Below, in pieces: positions 15,735-24,705 of a stretch of DNA of 29,804 bases. Numbering within the stretch: the first letter of the stretch is position 1; each line of letters begins with the position of its first letter. The notes under the pieces were generated by a model. It saw only the letters and a program-made list of their open reading frames with translations. It searched no databases and was not told the origin of the DNA. This stretch comes from a virus (Duplodnaviria; Heunggongvirae; Uroviricota; Caudoviricetes). The position numbers and the translations under genes are program-made. Where the stretch lies: positions 1 to 29,804 of the IMG/VR virus record IMGVR_UViG_2639762982_000016. The stretch is one strand, 5' to 3'.

Positions 15735-15811
15735 GTGGCATTAGCTCAGTCGGACAGAGCAACCGCCTTCTAAGCGGTTGGTCGCAGGTTCGAATCCTGC
15801 ATGCCACGCCA
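15735..15811 (+). tRNA. tRNA-Arg, anticodon UCU (reads AGA), with encoded CCA
   Basis: Hand-folded cloverleaf: 7-bp acceptor stem GTGGCAT/ATGCCAC, D-arm GCTC..GAGC, anticodon stem ACCGC/GCGGT with loop CTTCTAA, T-arm GCAGG-TTCGAAT-CCTGC, discriminator G, then CCA. Resembles but is not identical to the host argU sequence as I recall it. Confidence 0.85.
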
Positions 15812-16009: not shown

Positions 16010-16381
16010 ATGAACGACCAGCAAATCGAAAAAGAAATCGTTGAGAAAGGCAAAACGGCACCGCGCGTTACGCCAGACCATATCGAAGGCATTATTGCTC
16101 AGGAGGCATATTTCACAGCAGAAGATGGTGCCTTTGGCAAAGCCATAAAAGCGAAACATACTGGCGGAGAGGTAAACTACCAGCCGCACGAATCACTTTC
16201 TCTGCTGACGTTCTGCGTCCTGGTATTGCGCAACGGCTTCACCGTCACCGGAGAGAGTGCCTGTGCAAGTCCGGAAAATTTTGATGCAGAAATTGGTCGG
16301 AAGATTGCCCGGCAGAATGCTGTAAACAAAATCTGGATGCTCGAAGGTTACTTGCTGAAGCAGAAGCTAAGCGAGCAATAA
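16010..16381 (+). CDS. Small phage protein (123 aa), probably Gp49-like (N4 Gp49 / Sf6 gene 66 family); possible accessory (moron) gene
   Basis: RBS AAGGTGAGA; the motif block LTFCVLVLRNGFTVTGESACASPENFDAEIGRKIARQNA matches my recollection of that family; it is oppositely oriented to the flanking late genes. Confidence 0.5.
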   Translation: MNDQQIEKEIVEKGKTAPRVTPDHIEGIIAQEAYFTAEDGAFGKAIKAKHTGGEVNYQPHESLSLLTFCVLVLRNGFTVTGESACASPENFDAEIGRKIARQNAVNKIWMLEGYLLKQKLSEQ

Positions 16382-16384
16382 CAC

Positions 16385-16398
16385 CGTGACATGTCACA
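16385..16398. repeat. 14-bp palindrome CGTGACATGTCACA, copy 1 (downstream of the terminase large and Gp49-like genes)
   Basis: Perfect 12-bp palindrome GTGACATGTCAC with flanking C and A; an identical 14-mer occurs at 18650-18663. Confidence 0.6.
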
Positions 16399-16403
16399 AA
16401 CAG

Positions 16404-16429
16404 CCAGCCGATGAGCTGGCTTTGTTTTA
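16404..16429 (+). terminator. Intrinsic terminator (CCAGC-CGATGA-GCTGG plus CTTTGTTTT) ending the plus-strand cassette
   Basis: Stem-loop plus T-rich tract directly after the 16381 stop. Confidence 0.55.
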
Positions 16430-16471
16430 TCCTCATCAGAGGATATCAACGACATTATCCCCACCAGCGGA

Positions 16472-17947
16472 TTAAGCATACGGGTCATAATCTGTGATGG
16501 CCTTGCCTTGCTGGTTCTGCTGCCCAGGAATTCGCAGACGCTTCGACACAGGGAAAGCAAACGTCAGCAGTAGCGCATCGCCTTTACCCGGCGAACGCCC
16601 AAGTCGCTCTTTGATATCTTCCTTCGGTTCGATAACGATTTTACCGTCCACGCGAACTTTGTACTCTGCCGCCGACAGATCGTCCGCTGTTTCCTGGTCA
16701 TCCAGCATCCCGCCCAACCTCAGCCATGTCTTGCATGAGTTGAACATCTCCCCGCGCTTGTTGAGCATCTGAGGGTCAGTTGACGCACCACCGAACGGAA
16801 CAAGTTGCCATGTACGTCCCCAGCCATCACCGATTGACTTCAAACCGGTTCCGTAACCGAAGTCGATGAATACCGCGTCAGCCTGATACTGGTCTTCAAA
16901 GTCAGCGATGCGCTTCGCCATAATCAGATCGTCGGTGGTCTTGTTGCCAGTCCATAGCACCTTACTATGCAACCCCTGCCGCAGGTATATCACCGCGTCA
17001 TCAACGCCTGAATATGCCGGGTCAACACCGATTATCACCGGTGCATGTGCAACCTGCGCAGCAGTTACCACCCGTTTCATTGCCTCGTCAGTAAGACCGG
17101 TAGGGATAAACTGCAATTCAGATGCATTAGGGAATATGCCGCGCACACGGATTTTAACGAAGTCGCTGTCTTCCCCGTAGTCATCAACCCATTTCTGCAA
17201 TTGCTGCTTGTTAGTACCTTCCACCGTCCGGCTGTCAATCTGCGCAGTTTTCCAGCGGTGTTTATATTTGCGGAAACATTCACGGAATCGCCCGGTATTA
17301 CGCGTCGGGTTTCCGAACGCCACCCAGATAATCTCAGTGTCTTCGTCCGTTAGCGCACCTTCGGCAACTTCCCACACCAGATCCGCAATGTTCGACGCTT
17401 CATCAAACACCACGATGATGCGTTTGCGCTCGTTGTGTAGTCCGGCGAATGCCTCGGTGTTGTGCTCAGACCAGGGTATTGCGTCAGCCCGCCACCGCTT
17501 GTCGTGCCCTAGGTCATTGCTGTACATCGCGGTAGCGGTACAGGTAAACCAGTCTTTCGTGATGGCAAGGTTCGACCACTTGATAATTTCCGGCCAGGTC
17601 TTCGTTCGTAGCTGGTTGTCGGTGTTGGCGGTCACCACGACCTTACAATCCTCGCAAGTGGACATGCCCCAGTTGATCAGCATTGAGATGAATGCTGATT
17701 TACCAATACCGTGACCCGAAGCGCGTGCCAGCATAAGCGGCTGATAGCGCGTCTCTGGATTCTGCAGGTGATCACGTATCTCTCGGAACGCATCGGCTTG
17801 CCACTGACGTGGGCCGGTGGCATGTGCCAGTTCAGTCCCCTCTTCCCCCCACGGGAACGCATAGAGGGCATAGCCAAGCGGATCGTGAGTGAACCCTGCA
17901 ATATCCTCGATCAACTGCTCTTCAGGAGATAACGCTGTATCTGTCAC
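16472..17947 (-). CDS. Terminase large subunit (491 aa)
   Basis: Walker A-like ARASGHGIGKSAF near the N-terminal ATPase region; acidic nuclease-type motifs later; 4-nt overlap with the upstream small subunit gene. Confidence 0.85.
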   Translation of the reverse strand: MTDTALSPEEQLIEDIAGFTHDPLGYALYAFPWGEEGTELAHATGPRQWQADAFREIRDHLQNPETRYQPLMLARASGHGIGKSAFISMLINWGMSTCEDCKVVVTANTDNQLRTKTWPEIIKWSNLAITKDWFTCTATAMYSNDLGHDKRWRADAIPWSEHNTEAFAGLHNERKRIIVVFDEASNIADLVWEVAEGALTDEDTEIIWVAFGNPTRNTGRFRECFRKYKHRWKTAQIDSRTVEGTNKQQLQKWVDDYGEDSDFVKIRVRGIFPNASELQFIPTGLTDEAMKRVVTAAQVAHAPVIIGVDPAYSGVDDAVIYLRQGLHSKVLWTGNKTTDDLIMAKRIADFEDQYQADAVFIDFGYGTGLKSIGDGWGRTWQLVPFGGASTDPQMLNKRGEMFNSCKTWLRLGGMLDDQETADDLSAAEYKVRVDGKIVIEPKEDIKERLGRSPGKGDALLLTFAFPVSKRLRIPGQQNQQGKAITDYDPYA

Positions 17948-18540
17948 TGATTACCATCCTGACGTTCTTTGAGTCGCTTCCTGGCTGCCGCTATGCGATC
18001 AGCAATTGTCACATTCACATTAACATCCAGGCGTTCTTTGAACGCGTTGACGTCGACGTGCTTACCAATCAGTTCGAGGTTCTTCACCTTGTCAGGCCAT
18101 TTAATTTTTTTGAGGATTGTCTCTATCGAATCCTCGTTCATGTTCATGATGGTCGATGACAGATCAAAGCCGCTAAGCGTAGTGCGCCAGATTTTCGGCC
18201 ACTCGCGGATTGGCTTAAGGCTCCCATCGTCGTTGAGGATGTCGATCACGTCCATCTGGTCGATCTCCACCAGGCGCATGAGAACGTAATCAGCACTGAC
18301 GCGCATTCGTTTGTTGCGCTCCTCCATCAACTCGGCAATCCGTTTTTGAATGCGTTCATCGCGCATCATGACACTGGCTTTAACTGCCGCTGTATTTGGG
18401 GAGAATCCTGCGTTAATCGCTGCCTGAGTCTGGTTTTCAGGCGTTTTGATGTATGACTGGCAATAAGCCTCCTGCATTGCTGTGAGCGGCTTAAATTGCG
18501 TTGATTTGCGTTTATAGGTTTTAGGTTCAGCAGGCATCAT
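17944..18540 (-). CDS. Terminase small subunit (about 198 aa)
   Basis: Motif KPLTAMQEAYCQSYIKTPENQTQAAINAGFSPNTAAVKAS resembles small terminase (Terminase_2-type) N-termini. The ORF track extends to 18618 with a TTG start; I prefer ATG at 18540, but the start is uncertain. Confidence 0.65.
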   Translation of the reverse strand: MMPAEPKTYKRKSTQFKPLTAMQEAYCQSYIKTPENQTQAAINAGFSPNTAAVKASVMMRDERIQKRIAELMEERNKRMRVSADYVLMRLVEIDQMDVIDILNDDGSLKPIREWPKIWRTTLSGFDLSSTIMNMNEDSIETILKKIKWPDKVKNLELIGKHVDVNAFKERLDVNVNVTIADRIAAARKRLKERQDGNQ

Positions 18541-18579
18541 AACCACCGTGGTAATAGTTACCGTTGTGGTAATAGTACC

Positions 18580-18607
18580 ATGCAAAATAAAGCCGCCATA
18601 GTTGGCG
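18580..18607 (-). terminator. Intrinsic terminator-like hairpin (GCCGCCA-ACTA-TGGCGGC plus TTTATTTTG) just upstream of the terminase small gene
   Basis: 7-bp GC-rich stem followed by a U-rich tract on the minus strand. Confidence 0.45.
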
Positions 18608-18649
18608 GCAGTATTCAAAACCCGTCAAATTCATCATGCATAATCTAAT

Positions 18650-18663
18650 CGTGACATGTCACA
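18650..18663. repeat. 14-bp palindrome CGTGACATGTCACA, copy 2 (upstream of the terminase small gene, at the 3' end of the 115-aa ORF)
   Basis: Identical to the 14-mer at 16385-16398. Confidence 0.6.
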
Positions 18664-19006
18664 CTATTAATTTCGTTTCATGCCAGCCTTTAGTCACCCA
18701 GCATTGCGAGTCACCATTACACGGGCATGAATTAACTGGAACTCTCTCGCCGCACTTACCGCAACGTTTTCTGCTGATCGATTTTATACGCCCGCGCACA
18801 CGTGCATCATCCTGGCGGATCAGCAGCGCGATGTACTCGGCCATTTCATAGGGATCGCGACCAGGGCGCCGGGCGGCGCAGTTCCGCGCCAGCATTTCCT
18901 GCTCCTGCTTATCCAGCACCAGTTCAATTTTGCGCTCACCGGCGGCGGACTGCCGAGCGCGCTGCGCGGCTTTGCGTTCTGCGGGGGATTTAGCCACGAA
19001 TCGCAC
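18659..19006 (-). CDS. Hypothetical basic, Cys-rich protein (115 aa)
   Basis: ORF track; C-terminal RKRCGKCGERVPVNSCPCNGDSQC could be a zinc-binding cluster; function unknown. Confidence 0.45.
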   Translation of the reverse strand: MRFVAKSPAERKAAQRARQSAAGERKIELVLDKQEQEMLARNCAARRPGRDPYEMAEYIALLIRQDDARVRGRIKSISRKRCGKCGERVPVNSCPCNGDSQCWVTKGWHETKLIV

Positions 19007-19112
19007 TCCACGCCAGATTGATTAATGACTCCCAGGTAATATAAACCCGGATACCAGCAGCCAGGCCGAAACCAATCACCATGGCATAAAGCAGAGCGTT
19101 GCACTTGTTCAT
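18990..19112 (-). CDS. Putative 40-aa single-pass membrane peptide
   Basis: Internal ATG 19112-19110 preceded by AGGAGGT and overlapping the upstream stop (TGATG); hydrophobic core LLYAMVIGFGLAAGI. The longer 65-aa reading in the ORF track is probably an artefact. Confidence 0.35.
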   Translation of the reverse strand: MNKCNALLYAMVIGFGLAAGIRVYITWESLINLAWSAIRG

Positions 19113-19741
19113 CACTTCACCTCCTGCGGCGGTTCTGGTAGCGGCATCCAGTGTGATGGTATCCACGACGCACCAGGTACTACCCACCCATCATTAGCGT
19201 CAGGATGCCCCGGGATGTAAGTCGCCCATTTCATTCGCCAGTCACCTTTCCTGTCAAACTCCCTGGCAACAAGAACGGCTGTTTTGGTATCCGGCATTCG
19301 CTCACTACAGCTTATCCAACCATCCGTAGTTACCGGAGAGTTGCCCGATATCTGGTTCAACTTGTAAGTTTGGCTTACAGGTTCGGCTTTCAGTTCTGCA
19401 ATGCGCTGTTTTGCGGCATCCAGTTCAATCGACAATTTTTCCAACTGCTCTTGATGCTTCTTGTATTCCTGATATGCGTGCCAAGACTGACCTTTGCGCA
19501 CACTATCAGTGATATCAGTAATCTGTTCTGGTGTTAGCGTGGTCAGTGGCTGTGATGGGAAAATAAGCACTTTCCCGGAATCCCAATCAAAACCAGCGTG
19601 AATTGACTGAACCTCAACTGAAGGTGTTGAACCAATGCTGCCAGGCGAATGAACAACGATTGTTACATCCATATCGCGACGATGGCTGTGGTTGTTGGAC
19701 AAAATACGATTCACCAACTCAGAAAATTTGGAAAATTTCAT
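19112..19741 (-). CDS. DUF551-domain phage protein (209 aa)
   Basis: C-terminal WISCSERMPD...VLV...GWVVPG...SHWMPLPEPP pattern matches the DUF551 family as I recall it. Confidence 0.6.
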   Translation of the reverse strand: MKFSKFSELVNRILSNNHSHRRDMDVTIVVHSPGSIGSTPSVEVQSIHAGFDWDSGKVLIFPSQPLTTLTPEQITDITDSVRKGQSWHAYQEYKKHQEQLEKLSIELDAAKQRIAELKAEPVSQTYKLNQISGNSPVTTDGWISCSERMPDTKTAVLVAREFDRKGDWRMKWATYIPGHPDANDGWVVPGASWIPSHWMPLPEPPQEVK

Positions 19742-20061
19742 GCTGATTCCCCTTTCTCTGCTCTCTCCTGTCGGAACATCACTATCATCAGGTCGCCTTT
19801 TGTCGCTATCCTGGCTGTTGTACCTGGTTCAATGCGGCTAAGCTCAAATGCGTCATAGAACGCTTCTAATGCCTTCTGGCGTAGTTCCTGTTTGCGCCGT
19901 TTTTTCCACTGTTTTAGGAAAATGGAACCCAGCCATCGCCATGTGCGGGACATGATGTAAAGCCAACCGAGAAGTGCCAGACCGGTATTTAGGAGCGTAT
20001 CGATCGTTATTGTCGTGTCGATATTCACTGGCTGCTTCCTTTGCGAATCTGTTCCGCCCAT
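19738..20061 (-). CDS. Hypothetical membrane protein (107 aa, one predicted transmembrane helix)
   Basis: ORF track; hydrophobic stretch LLNTGLALLGWLYIMS followed by a basic patch; the start is uncertain because it overlaps the upstream gene by 37 nt. Confidence 0.4.
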   Translation of the reverse strand: MGGTDSQRKQPVNIDTTITIDTLLNTGLALLGWLYIMSRTWRWLGSIFLKQWKKRRKQELRQKALEAFYDAFELSRIEPGTTARIATKGDLMIVMFRQERAEKGESA

Positions 20062-20678
20062 TCTTCAAGGGATTTCTCCGCATATTCACCAGACAGGCCA
20101 TCAATCGGATGCGCTTCATTAGCCAACTCTTCTTTCGCTGACAAAATCATGCGTGTAACGTCGAAAACTTCACGCAAAGACTTATTGATAAATCCGTGAT
20201 TGAACGCAGCAGCAAGACGGCTGGCGGTATAGTTAATCCCCTCGTTGCGTGCTTCCGCACGAATTTCAGCCAGGAAAGCATCAGTGGTTGGCGTTTCAGG
20301 TATCTGTCTCCTCATCCGTTCTATTGCATGATTGAACCCGAAGTCTTCCGCGAGAGATACGTCATCCATATTGTCATTGTCATCTTCAATATCCCGTGAT
20401 TCTGGAATTGCAGACTTTATTCCCGCATTCTCCGCCGCCAGCGCCGAAAACTTCTCGTGTGCCAACTTAACAGCCGAATCAGCCTGCTTAATTGACTCAA
20501 TCGCTCTCTGGTGGTCTTCGGCCATCGCATTAGCACGCACCAGTTGCACTTCCAGTTGCGTTGCCAAATCGCTGATCAGCTTTGCCACGCTGCGCATATC
20601 AACGGCACCACATTCAGCTTTCAGTTCCGAAGCCATCTCATGCCCGGCGGAAACTAACCCTTTGATATTACCGTCCAT
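20025..20678 (-). CDS. Hypothetical acidic protein (217 aa)
   Basis: ORF track; no recognisable motifs. Confidence 0.5.
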   Translation of the reverse strand: MDGNIKGLVSAGHEMASELKAECGAVDMRSVAKLISDLATQLEVQLVRANAMAEDHQRAIESIKQADSAVKLAHEKFSALAAENAGIKSAIPESRDIEDDNDNMDDVSLAEDFGFNHAIERMRRQIPETPTTDAFLAEIRAEARNEGINYTASRLAAAFNHGFINKSLREVFDVTRMILSAKEELANEAHPIDGLSGEYAEKSLEEWAEQIRKGSSQ

Positions 20679-20739
20679 CTTTACCCTCGCTTATCCACAT
20701 AACTTATTGATTACATTGATAACTAAAAAGATCGTCGAT

Positions 20740-21348
20740 TCATGCCGATCTATTTTTCATCAGTGATTCATAAAACTTTTGCCACTTATGCCGACCGAAA
20801 TTAGCCTTCGAGTTACAGCTCGAACAAAGACAAATAAGGTTCTCCTGACGACAGTCTTGTTTGTCGTAATTGATATGATGAGTTGTTAGCCTTTTGTCTG
20901 TTCCATCACAACCTGGGTTCTGACAAGTAAAACCATCTCGCTCAATAACCCTCTTGCTCGTTTCTCGGAAATCCCACGGATACGGCAATCTCGATAATCC
21001 ACCAGACCAGTTTGGATTTCCTTCCCCCTTCATCAGAGAAGAACGCATTATGTTGGAACACTGTTTCGAGCAGCATTTATGACGCTTCTCATGACTCAAG
21101 AAAACGGAGAACGAAGATCCGCATACGCAGCATATTTTTAATACTCGCTTTAGTTCCCGATTTACCGTCTTGCCTCGCTGTGAAATTCCTACACACTGAA
21201 GTGAGCAGAACCTTGAAGAGGAGTTGGCTCGCTTAACCTGATATTGCCTGCCACATACGGAGCAAACCTTTTCGATTTTCCCACCCTTCCAATTCGGGTT
21301 TTTATCACCGGATACAATCAATCCCGCAGCATTGGGCTTCTCGCTCAT
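20740..21348 (-). CDS. HNH endonuclease (202 aa)
   Basis: Multiple Cys pairs and the motif HHINYDKQDCRQENLICLCSSCNSKAN typical of HNH nucleases; start overlaps the upstream gene stop (ATGA). Confidence 0.75.
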   Translation of the reverse strand: MSEKPNAAGLIVSGDKNPNWKGGKIEKVCSVCGRQYQVKRANSSSRFCSLQCVGISQRGKTVNRELKRVLKICCVCGSSFSVFLSHEKRHKCCSKQCSNIMRSSLMKGEGNPNWSGGLSRLPYPWDFRETSKRVIERDGFTCQNPGCDGTDKRLTTHHINYDKQDCRQENLICLCSSCNSKANFGRHKWQKFYESLMKNRSA

Positions 21349-21698
21349 AGTTCCTCAACCTCCCATCCACCACCGAGCTTTTTAGGTTTTGGATAAGCAA
21401 CCTGAAAGACAAACGGATAGCTGTCTGCCGCAACCTTCATCTTGACTCTCGCATCGTCAGTAAAGACTGACTTACTTCCCTTAACGTCCACCATCACCAA
21501 CTGCCCGTCAGCCAACATCACGGCAAAATCTACAGTCAGGAAGCAGTTGTCAGCCAGCCGCAGCTTGATACCCTCGAACCGATACCAGGCGACTTCCCCT
21601 GCACGTTTACGCTGCTCAAGGTGCTGGCAATACGCAGATTATGTTTTGTTCATCTGGCCTGTTTTGAGTCGACCAAGAGCCTGTATCTGTTTTCTCAT
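21345..21698 (-). pseudogene. Small conserved phage gene interrupted by an in-frame TAA at codon 20
   Basis: ATG at 21698 with RBS AGAGGT; translation MRKQIQALGRLKTGQMNKT, then a stop at 21641-21639, then the same frame continues SAYCQHLEQRKRAGEVAWYRFEGIKLRLADNCF... to a stop overlapping the HNH start. Confidence 0.55.
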
Positions 21699-21701
21699 GA
21701 T

Positions 21702-21778
21702 TTACCTCTGAGGTAATTAAAAACCACATAAGACACGAAATCAATAGATCTAAGAATATTTTGTTACCTATTAGGTAA
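21702..21778. promoter_or_regulatory. Two perfect operator-like palindromes TTACC-N5-GGTAA (21702-21716 and 21764-21778) between the P-like gene and the downstream genes
   Basis: TTACCtctgaGGTAA and TTACCtattaGGTAA; the first overlaps the RBS of the interrupted gene; a candidate TTGATT/TTTAAT promoter lies between them on the minus strand. Confidence 0.45.
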
Positions 21779-24120: not shown

Positions 24121-24705
24121 ATGAAAAGTATCCAGGACGTCCGCAGGCAAAATCTCAACGACTTGATCGACCGTGAATTCAATGGTGTTCAGACGCGGAT
24201 GGCAGAAAAACTTGGAACTCAGGCAAATCTGGTAAACCGCTGGGCTCTTGGCAAGAAGGTTATCGGCGACCAGGTTGCGCGAAAAATTGAAGCTGCCGCC
24301 AATAAACCCCGTAACTGGCTTGATATCGATCGCTCGCTTTCTCAGGAAGGTTTTCAGCCTGTCGGCCCAAGCGACATTGGTCAGCTGGCGGCTCACAACC
24401 TGGAACGCTGGATGAGCGAAAGCCGCGACCTTTCAACACAGGGAAAACTTCACCGCGCATCCGGCGTCGCCCAGGTGACAATCAGCCGCCTGTTAAACAA
24501 TGAGGTCAGCGTTTCCATTTCCACCCTGGAGAATGTTGCATCCGCATTCGGGCGTCACGGCTATGAATTACTGATTCACCCGCACGACCCTGCGACCATC
24601 AACTATGACCGCTCGCGCTACGCATTGTTACCCGAAACCGAGAAAGCAAAGATCGAAAGTTACATTGAATTTGTCATCAACCAGAACGAAAAAAACAAAC
24701 AATAA
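24121..24705 (+). CDS. Immunity repressor candidate with two HTH domains and no recognisable S24 peptidase domain (194 aa)
   Basis: Divergent from the Cro-like gene; HTH-like segments at about residues 25-45 and 110-135; no Ser/Lys autocleavage motifs seen; followed by a terminator. Confidence 0.6.
   Translation: MKSIQDVRRQNLNDLIDREFNGVQTRMAEKLGTQANLVNRWALGKKVIGDQVARKIEAAANKPRNWLDIDRSLSQEGFQPVGPSDIGQLAAHNLERWMSESRDLSTQGKLHRASGVAQVTISRLLNNEVSVSISTLENVASAFGRHGYELLIHPHDPATINYDRSRYALLPETEKAKIESYIEFVINQNEKNKQ

Follow-up and report, generated by a model that had tools for sequence, protein, structure and literature searches.

What is the function of the five uncharacterised genes that stand just upstream of the terminase genes in the virus record IMGVR_UViG_2639762982_000016? 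The stretch of DNA analysed here (29,804 nucleotides (nt), positions 1 to 29,804 of that record; hereafter the window) carries, on its minus strand and back to back between a gene for an HNH endonuclease and terS, open reading frames (ORFs) for a protein of 217 amino acids (aa), a DUF4752 protein of 96 aa, a DUF551 protein of 209 aa, a membrane peptide of 40 aa and a protein of 112 aa. An original prediction recognised the same five ORFs, placed them in the slot where lambdoid phages keep their lysis genes, and suggested that they might form a non-canonical lysis or holin-like set, serve in superinfection exclusion or abortive infection, or act as late regulators. The five genes are real, and each matches a profile family. 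We conclude, with a probability of about 0.8, that the region is a variable early accessory operon of a Uetakevirus prophage with a regulator-type last gene, and not a lysis cassette. The block is the already known variable accessory region of epsilon15/phiV10-like prophages, common in Escherichia coli, and a gene block upstream of the terminase is thus not readable as a lysis slot before the phage type is known.

Over positions 1-24000 of the window, the phages ZX5 (vB_EcoP_ZX5), HEMP4, phiv142-3 and PAS61 and the O157 typing phages 9 and 10 are 97-98% identical over 84-90% of the sequence, and phiV10 matches over 77%. All close matches with a taxonomy line belong to the genus Uetakevirus (epsilon15-like temperate podophages), and int, the repressor gene, terS/terL and the virion genes follow one another as in phiV10, the arrangement expected of a member of that genus. 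On this comparison the window is a Uetakevirus (phiV10/epsilon15-like) prophage and not a lambdoid one. In phiV10, epsilon15, phiv142-3 and TL-2011b, the lysis cassette follows the tail-fibre and O-antigen-modification genes, adjoins int, and consists of a membrane protein with three transmembrane helices, a holin, an endolysin and Rz/Rz1. The holin of this lineage is of the DUF754 type and adjoins the endolysin gene after the tail-fibre gene; the endolysin of epsilon15 has been characterised biochemically (PMC12391199). Because the lysis cassette of the Uetakevirus relatives sits elsewhere, the premise of a lambdoid lysis slot, from which the original prediction set out, does not apply to this locus. 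No tblastn match to the tail fibre, Oac, membrane protein, holin, endolysin or Rz of phiV10 was obtained in the window. The left end of the window is formed by an IS3-family element, presumably IS2-like, which disrupts the prophage by truncating a homologue of the virion gene phiV10p20 (824 residues) past residue 552. The lysis genes of the present prophage would lie past the left end of the window, or would have been lost.

The gene content of the slot is itself a poor fit to an essential lysis function, since it differs in nearly every relative. A 2.8-kb query (18600-21400 of the window) was searched against 50,697 phage records and 5,426 complete E. coli genomes, and no record in either set contained at least 80% of it. 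Pieces of the query matched Stx phages, P1-like phages, Salmonella phages and many prophages, and parts were found in 2765 of the 5426 E. coli genomes, many of them in other phage types. Related loci were sampled from 80 viral contigs that carry the last of the five genes, 43 of which span the whole slot. The length of the slot in these 43 ranges from 2061 to 4623 nt, with a median of 3294. A gene at least 80% identical to that of the 217-aa protein was found in none of them, and partial matches at 30% identity or above in 39. DUF4752 occurred once at an identity of at least 50% and never at 80% or above. Some DUF551-type gene was present in 37, none of them at least 60% identical over the full length, and the 209-aa gene was missing from all 43 at a threshold of 80% or above. 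The 40-aa peptide, at 90% identity or more, was present in 12 of these slots; among the 78 loci with enough upstream sequence it was found in 22, always directly before the 112-aa gene. The full combination of the HNH gene, the 217-aa variant, DUF4752, the 209-aa DUF551 variant and the 40-aa peptide was seen in no searched record. Judged by these comparisons, the slot has the pattern of dispensable, exchangeable cargo rather than that of an essential lysis function. The HNH gene, which had been taken as one flank of the block, is present but is not a regular flank: at a threshold of 80% identity it was found in only 2 of the 43 related slots (in both at 100%), and all four reference genomes are without it. 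It looks like a mobile, homing-type insertion; PADLOC matched its product to ZorE-type HNH models.

Along the minus strand, the order of genes is DnaT-like, P, a DUF1064 remnant, HNH, the five ORFs, terS and terL (Table 1). The 58-aa ORF at 21521-21345 is the C-terminal remnant of the DUF1064 gene, as judged by comparison with phiV10p45; in TL-2011b, the DUF1064 gene is frameshifted. The five genes overlap one another, the junctions being GTGA, ATGA, TGATG and GTGGCTAA, and are therefore translationally coupled. A small hairpin terminator lies between gene P and a sigma70-like promoter, which is flanked by two operator-like repeats. This promoter stretch (21702-21778) is kept in five E. coli relatives, and epsilon15 has TTGAAA, 17 nt and TTAAAT. 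The repeat in question, TTACC-N5-GGTAA, is found 10 times in the window versus 0.55 expected. In the immunity region it occupies the intergene between the repressor and the cro-like gene, the other side of the repressor and a position past the cro-side terminator; the further copies make up a pair after P, a pair before terS and a single copy near the tRNA gene, the latter being the only match in an Rfam scan. Besides the immunity region, the repeat is found directly downstream of terminators, where each transcription unit begins. Equivalents of these sites, including the one before terS, are annotated as repressor-binding in the epsilon15 record, and the distribution suggests repressor control at many promoters beyond OL/OR. 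At the far end of the block, the terminator and the palindrome that had been noted before the terminase are both present and conserved as far as epsilon15, and a terminator is annotated at this place in both epsilon15 and phiV10. An alternative terS ORF (224 aa, TTG start) would include this terminator. Taken together, the promoter would drive, after the P terminator, one translationally coupled unit composed of the DUF1064 remnant, HNH, the Ead/Ea22-like gene, DUF4752, DUF551, the 40-aa peptide and the 112-aa gene, and ending at the terminator before terS. Such a unit would stay silent in a lysogen and be switched on early, upon induction or infection.

Table 1. Features of the window referred to in the text (window coordinates; nucleotides)
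Feature	Position	Strand	Remarks
217-aa protein	20678-20025	-	pI (isoelectric point) 4.78; first variable position of the slot
DUF4752 protein, 96 aa	20028-19738	-	GTG start at 20028
209-aa protein	19741-19112	-	N-terminal phrog_6026 domain, C-terminal DUF551
40-aa membrane peptide	19112-18990	-	single helix; phrog_5525 at 3e-29; Kyte-Doolittle maximum 1.85
112-aa protein	18997-18659	-	GTG start at 18997; phrog_536 'transcriptional regulator' at 5.5e-54; pI 9.7, 6 Cys
Palindrome site 1	18651-18662		perfect GTGACATGTCAC, across the stop codon of the 112-aa gene
Palindrome site 2	16386-16397		second exact GTGACATGTCAC; Gp49-family stop codon on one side, hairpin terminator on the other
Terminator-like hairpin	18609-18592, T-run to 18584	-	GCCGCC-AACT-ATGGCGGC plus TTTATTTT
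Sigma70-like promoter	TTGATT 21744-21739, TTTAAT 21721-21716	-	17-nt spacer; pattern match
Operator-like pair after gene P	21764-21778, 21702-21716		flanks the sigma70-like promoter
Operator-like pair directly before terS	18558-18572, 18540-18554	-	TTACCACAACGGTAA and TTACCACGGTGGTTA
TTACC-N5-GGTAA copies	15398, 18540, 18558, 21702, 21764, 23666, 24003, 24051, 24763, 24825		
HNH endonuclease, 202 aa	21348-20740	-	Cys-rich, 16 Cys
DUF1064 gene	21698-21345	-	in-frame TAA at codon 20, where phiV10p45 has GAA
Lambda-P-like gene (gene P)	22592-21816	-	
DnaT-like replication gene	23412-22564	-	
terS	17944-18537	-	probably 197 aa from the ATG at 18537
terL	17947-16472	-	
Hairpin terminator shared with terL	16402-16430		5 nt past the second GTGACATGTCAC
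Gp49-family gene	16010-16381	+	convergent with terL
tRNA-Arg (anticodon TCT)	15735-15811	+	ARAGORN, Rfam; flanked by terL and the portal gene; late genes on the other strand
Repressor gene	24121-24702		
Integrase	29804-28557	-	
IS3-family element end	1-193		first 191 bases, found in >5000 plasmids

The four variable genes have recognisable families. The 217-aa protein, which is acidic as had been stated, matches Ead_Ea22 (PF13935; 29.5 bits versus a cut-off of 27, residues 56-139) and phrog_614 (1.5e-64), and a 98.6% identical protein in one of the related loci (L011) bears the PGAP name ead/Ea22-like. Its identity to phiV10p46 is 67% and to epsilon15 gp44 31%, and it is internally mosaic. The Eae/Ea22-like proteins of the related loci fall into 44 distinct variants of 96-327 aa, in which residues 1-50, a TPATDAFLAEVRAQ motif and a QLRKGGNQ tail are constant and internal blocks are exchanged; this suggests recombination at fixed joints within the gene. 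The Ea22 proteins of lambda and Stx phages form coiled-coil tetramers, have swappable C-terminal domains and favour lysogeny, and one Stx variant (V2) has DUF551 at its end (PMC10834534). The second protein does contain the hydrophobic helix for which it was singled out, but its length is 96 aa rather than 107: the start is the GTG used in the PGAP protein WP_001018057.1 (291 bp) and in homologues of 91-96 aa, not the ATG at 20061. It matches DUF4752 (PF15944, 143 bits versus a cut-off of 27, 2.4e-42) and is 99% identical to a 96-aa homologue. An N-terminal hydrophobic helix, a KRRKQ stretch and a short C-terminal hairpin are conserved in this family, which is small (143 hits) and restricted to the Enterobacteriaceae; the AlphaFold2 model, of moderate confidence (mean pLDDT 69.7), has a helix at residues 3-60 and a hairpin at 73-84. 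A literature search on DUF4752 yielded no paper.

The assignment of the third protein to DUF551 was borne out (PF04448, 80 bits versus a cut-off of 22, 2.5e-22), the match covering residues 141-206 and the full length of the profile, and its central segment can be read from the sequence as a coiled coil. DUF551 proteins of the related loci comprise 51 variants that have mainly the C-terminal domain in common. A DUF551-bearing protein of prophage CPS-53, YfdS, has been connected with tolerance of oxidative stress; jointly with its neighbours, it has also been connected with the inhibition of initiation by DnaA (PMC4776307). The 40-aa membrane peptide likewise has both of the features ascribed to it, a hydrophobic helix and a very strong ribosome-binding site, namely a perfect AGGAGGTGA with 7 nt from the AGGAGG core to the ATG; this start shares TGATG with the stop of the DUF551 gene. 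Only 6 phage records contain the peptide; P1-like phages have relatives of it at 50% identity. Sequence searches of the PDB with every one of the five but the 40-aa peptide returned chance matches only, such as designed TPR proteins, and NCBIfam had nothing for the five genes. From family and genomic context, the best reading of these four genes is that of early host-directed or decision-modulating cargo. They belong to an exchangeable stock common to Stx, P1-like and P22-like phages and, by analogy with the Ea22 of lambda and Stx phages, would influence the host or the balance between lysis and lysogeny rather than the cell wall.

A more specific form of this idea is that the variable genes are cargo for counter-defence or host takeover, inhibiting host defences or redirecting the host early in infection. 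Hypervariable early accessory slots are the typical site of such genes; in a distant phage (L093), the corresponding region has an Acb2/Tad1-type hairpin protein beside its 112-aa homologue; and the link of YfdS to oxidative-stress tolerance and, with its neighbours, to DnaA control (PMC4776307) fits an action on the host. None of the proteins matched a described anti-defence protein, and there was no structural lead, so we regard this more specific reading as doubtful. It overlaps the explanation as a variable accessory operon rather than competing with it.

The last gene of the block behaves differently. By sequence comparison, the 112-aa gene is the sole conserved one of the five and the fixed end of the operon. 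Members of its family (phiV10p55 / epsilon15 gp49) in phiv142-3, phiV10, TL-2011b and epsilon15 are 82-88% identical to it, and in each of these genomes the gene is the last before terS; in 78 of the 80 viral contigs, terS begins 77-476 nt downstream. The protein is basic and Cys-rich, as had been noted, and is shorter than the 115 aa of the ORF first described (19006-18659); a start at GTG 18997 agrees with almost all of 120 listed homologues. The family comprises 786 proteins in 151 clusters at 50% identity and occurs in Uetakevirus, Mu-like, N15-like, P2-like and Vibrio phages. It is unnamed and without a Pfam model, and databases label it only 'hypothetical' or 'transcriptional regulator'. 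In a P2-like prophage (L094, 5001-9032), the homologue stands after replication gene A and before genes for CTD9, MC5 and an AAA ATPase, a block that looks like a defence-type hotspot. The alignment of the family displays a basic N-terminal helix, a strand-helix-helix-like core and conserved cysteines (C79-x2-C82...C99), and the predicted model has a ribbon-helix-helix (RHH)-like fold at residues ~20-75 followed by a C-terminal Cys knuckle. A BFVD fold search with this model found only a fragment from its own family, and RHH sequence profiles had no similarity to the protein. Going by the model, the protein looks like a DNA-binding regulator. Thus the suggestion of late regulators is supported in part, and only for the 112-aa gene, which is conserved, linked to a palindrome and predicted to have an RHH-like fold. 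In loci without the 40-aa peptide, an ASCH, a DUF2591 or another gene stands upstream of the 112-aa gene. A toxin-antitoxin pair made up of the peptide and the RHH protein was considered and rejected, the pairing being facultative (22 of 78 loci).

A palindrome, GTGAC-N2-GTCAC, accompanies the 112-aa gene. GTGAC-N1-4-GTCAC is present twice in the window versus 0.07 expected, and the chance of a GTGAC-N2-GTCAC-type site in a 360-nt window is ~3e-4. Site 1, at the end of the gene, is conserved as far as epsilon15 and is found in 77 of 79 Uetakevirus-like loci; site 2 is found in 56 of 77 related loci, and also in phiV10 and epsilon15. Epsilon15 has three palindromes, of which one follows gp49, another terL and the third gp18, where the virion operon ends, and phiV10 likewise has an additional one past the final gene of its virion operon. 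Other phage types have distant homologues at 33-46% identity, beside which the half-sites are identical and the centre is different. In 19 of 21 Mu-like loci, GTGACCGGTCAC lies 20-41 nt inside the 3' end of the gene; in loci L093 and L097-L099, (T)GTGACAGGTCAC(A) lies across the stop codon, or 5 and 105 nt past it. The palindrome is ~30 nt past the homologue in Klebsiella phage NAR688, 226 nt past the gene in Vibrio phage K253 (with a second copy 31 nt before terS) and 138 nt past it in locus L005 (second copy 23 nt before terS), and N15-like phages have CTGAC-N4-GTCAG 37 nt past the gene. The copies before terS in K253 (L121, 7214-7225) and L005 (8026-8037), both HK97-style phages with an HNH-terS arrangement, are GTGACACGTCAC and lie 23-31 nt from that gene. 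The N15-like locus L006 has another exact 12-bp palindrome, GGACCATGGTCC, at 2805-2816 and 8482-8493; one copy immediately follows the Q antiterminator gene and one immediately precedes the holin gene.

Because the position of the palindrome relative to the reading frame varies by lineage, coding constraint does not explain it. We conclude from these co-occurrences that the 112-aa gene and the palindrome form a functional pair, and the palindrome is probably the binding site of the 112-aa protein. That the palindrome might be a pac or cos site was also considered; the presence of 2-3 palindromes per genome, kilobases apart, argues against it. A literature search on the palindrome sequence found no paper. 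In the mechanism we propose, the 112-aa protein (RHH plus zinc knuckle) would bind GTGAC-N2-GTCAC at the 3' end of its own gene and where other operons end and, once bound, would modulate transcription over the early/late boundary into the packaging genes. A role in boundary or late-gene transcription may be assigned to it, with low confidence in the direction of the effect. More broadly, the family might consist of undescribed, widespread phage regulators that control or insulate the passage from early to late transcription. Each would have a matS-like site of its own, placed where its gene ends and recurring at late-operon boundaries (two lineages have a copy 23-115 nt upstream of terS); this extension we put forward tentatively, as a possibility. 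The 112-aa family thereby receives a first hypothesis, and the 112-aa RHH-Zn protein with GTGACATGTCAC constitutes a concrete candidate protein-site pair for an undescribed early-to-late switch of Uetakevirus. The pairing of gene and palindrome is the one item here worth an experiment.

Another way to read the same boundary is that the 112-aa protein is a Q-like antiterminator, with the palindrome lying over a weak promoter whose short transcript ends at the hairpin, as in lambda PR'-tR', except when RNA polymerase has been modified by the protein. The layout has something to commend it: the gene is immediately upstream, a promoter-like GTGACA, 18 nt, CATGAT lies over the palindrome, a terminator follows ~40 nt downstream and ahead of the late genes, and epsilon15 has GTGACA, 17 nt, TAAATT. 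The zinc region also has a weak profile similarity to the RNA polymerase-binding protein TraR and to YbiI (E 0.04-0.07); this is not significant, and a relationship to TraR/DksA-type zinc fingers was set aside as too weak to use (E 0.04). Moreover, the protein matched neither Phage_antiter_Q nor any other Q profile, the remaining palindrome copies are not at promoters, and N15-like relatives carry a separate Q, which together make the Q-like reading improbable.

Several observations weigh against the explanation that we prefer, a variable accessory operon closed by a regulator. None of the five families has an established function. The match of the 217-aa protein to PF13935 is barely over the cut-off, and a pro-lysogenic role is known only for the Ea22 of lambda and Stx phages, at a different genome position (exo-xis). 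The promoter and the operators are known only as pattern matches. Palindrome and terminator are not arranged in a uniform way, the palindrome at site 1 being 42 nt upstream of the hairpin and that at site 2 downstream of the hairpin in the late direction. Three lineages, represented by the P2-like locus, a short contig and an Aeromonas phage, have no palindrome. Finally, homologues of the 112-aa protein coexist with Q, with Mor or with a possible Ogr-like 72-aa protein in N15-, Mu- and P2-like phages, respectively (the Ogr-sized gene of the P2-like locus has no recorded family), and a late-activator role is therefore not obligatory for the 112-aa protein.

The control of the operon bears on a further alternative, namely that the genes, especially those for the two membrane proteins, are expressed from the prophage and protect the lysogen by superinfection exclusion or abortive infection. 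Small membrane proteins of variable prophage regions often have such roles, and the gene set is common to many prophage types. However, PADLOC gave no match for the five proteins, and none of the genes has a promoter-terminator pair of its own: all are coupled in an operon with an operator-flanked promoter, which appears to be repressor-controlled and so would not be expressed in the lysogen. The immunity of phiV10 is, besides, already ascribed to an O-acetyltransferase encoded elsewhere. We consider protection of the lysogen quite improbable.

The palindrome might instead be the site of a host nucleoid protein, MatP or SlmA, rather than that of a phage protein. The matS site of E. coli is GTGAC[AG]N[TC]GTCAC (PMC3603311, PMC3116907), whose half-sites recur here. 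The palindrome is 12 bp long, not 13, and the window is without the 13-bp form; prophages avoid matS (PMC3603311); and unrelated phages, those of Vibrio among them, have the palindrome together with the 112-aa gene, all of which renders a host site very improbable. Homology of the 112-aa protein to MatP was itself rejected by hhalign (probability 0.2%), and there was no match to the Pfam MatP model. Least likely of all, to the point of being hardly credible, is the non-canonical lysis or holin-like module in which DUF4752 and the 40-aa peptide would permeabilise the membrane with help from the others: both are small proteins with one hydrophobic helix and charged tails, the peptide has its very strong ribosome-binding site, and in the distant phage L005 the 112-aa homologue is directly upstream of a holin, but complete relatives have a full holin-endolysin-Rz/Rz1 cassette elsewhere, Pfam, NCBIfam and PHROG contain no holin, endolysin or spanin profile that matches (nor, as the original prediction had observed, any muramidase, transglycosylase or amidase motif), the peptide is found in only 22 of 78 loci and DUF4752 (at least 50% identity) in 1 of 43, and the genes belong to an early operon with a terminator downstream.

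The accessory operon can be compared with known systems at several levels. At the level of the binding site, the half-sites GTGAC and GTCAC of the palindrome are identical to those of matS, with a spacing of 2 bp here versus 3; the 112-aa protein differs from MatP in having an extra Cys knuckle and in being without a four-helix bundle or coiled coil. Its likeness to RHH proteins (the CopG/Arc/MetJ superfamily) lies in the predicted fold of residues ~20-75. The 217-aa protein has in common with the Ea22 of lambda and Stx phages the Ead_Ea22 signature and, from the alignment of variants, a swappable C-terminal domain; a central coiled coil of the Ea22 type is assumed from the family signature, and the solved C-terminal domain of lambda Ea22 had no sequence match to it in the PDB. 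The V2 variant of Ea22 and the 209-aa protein both end in DUF551 (PMC10834534). Ea22 is located in the exo-xis region, whereas the genes described here belong to an early-right operon. The segments p45-p55 of phiV10 and gp43-gp49 of epsilon15 occupy the same position, between the replication genes and terS. On one side they are flanked, as here, by P or DnaT-like genes and DUF1064, and on the other by the gp49/p55 'transcriptional regulator', a terminator, operator sites and terS. The gene families inside are also the same (Eae/Ead/Ea22-like and DUF551), and what sets the present slot apart is its particular assortment of HNH and the four variable genes, unmatched among the searched records. 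With the lambdoid lysis cassette (S, R, Rz/Rz1), the block has only the position upstream of the terminase in common, and no families. It resembles instead the nin region of lambda and the ea region of P22, sets of dispensable, mosaic early genes in which small, overlapping, exchangeable genes likewise lie between the replication and late genes. The lambdoid block ends with Q followed by the lysis genes, whereas the block described here ends with an RHH-Zn protein followed by terS.

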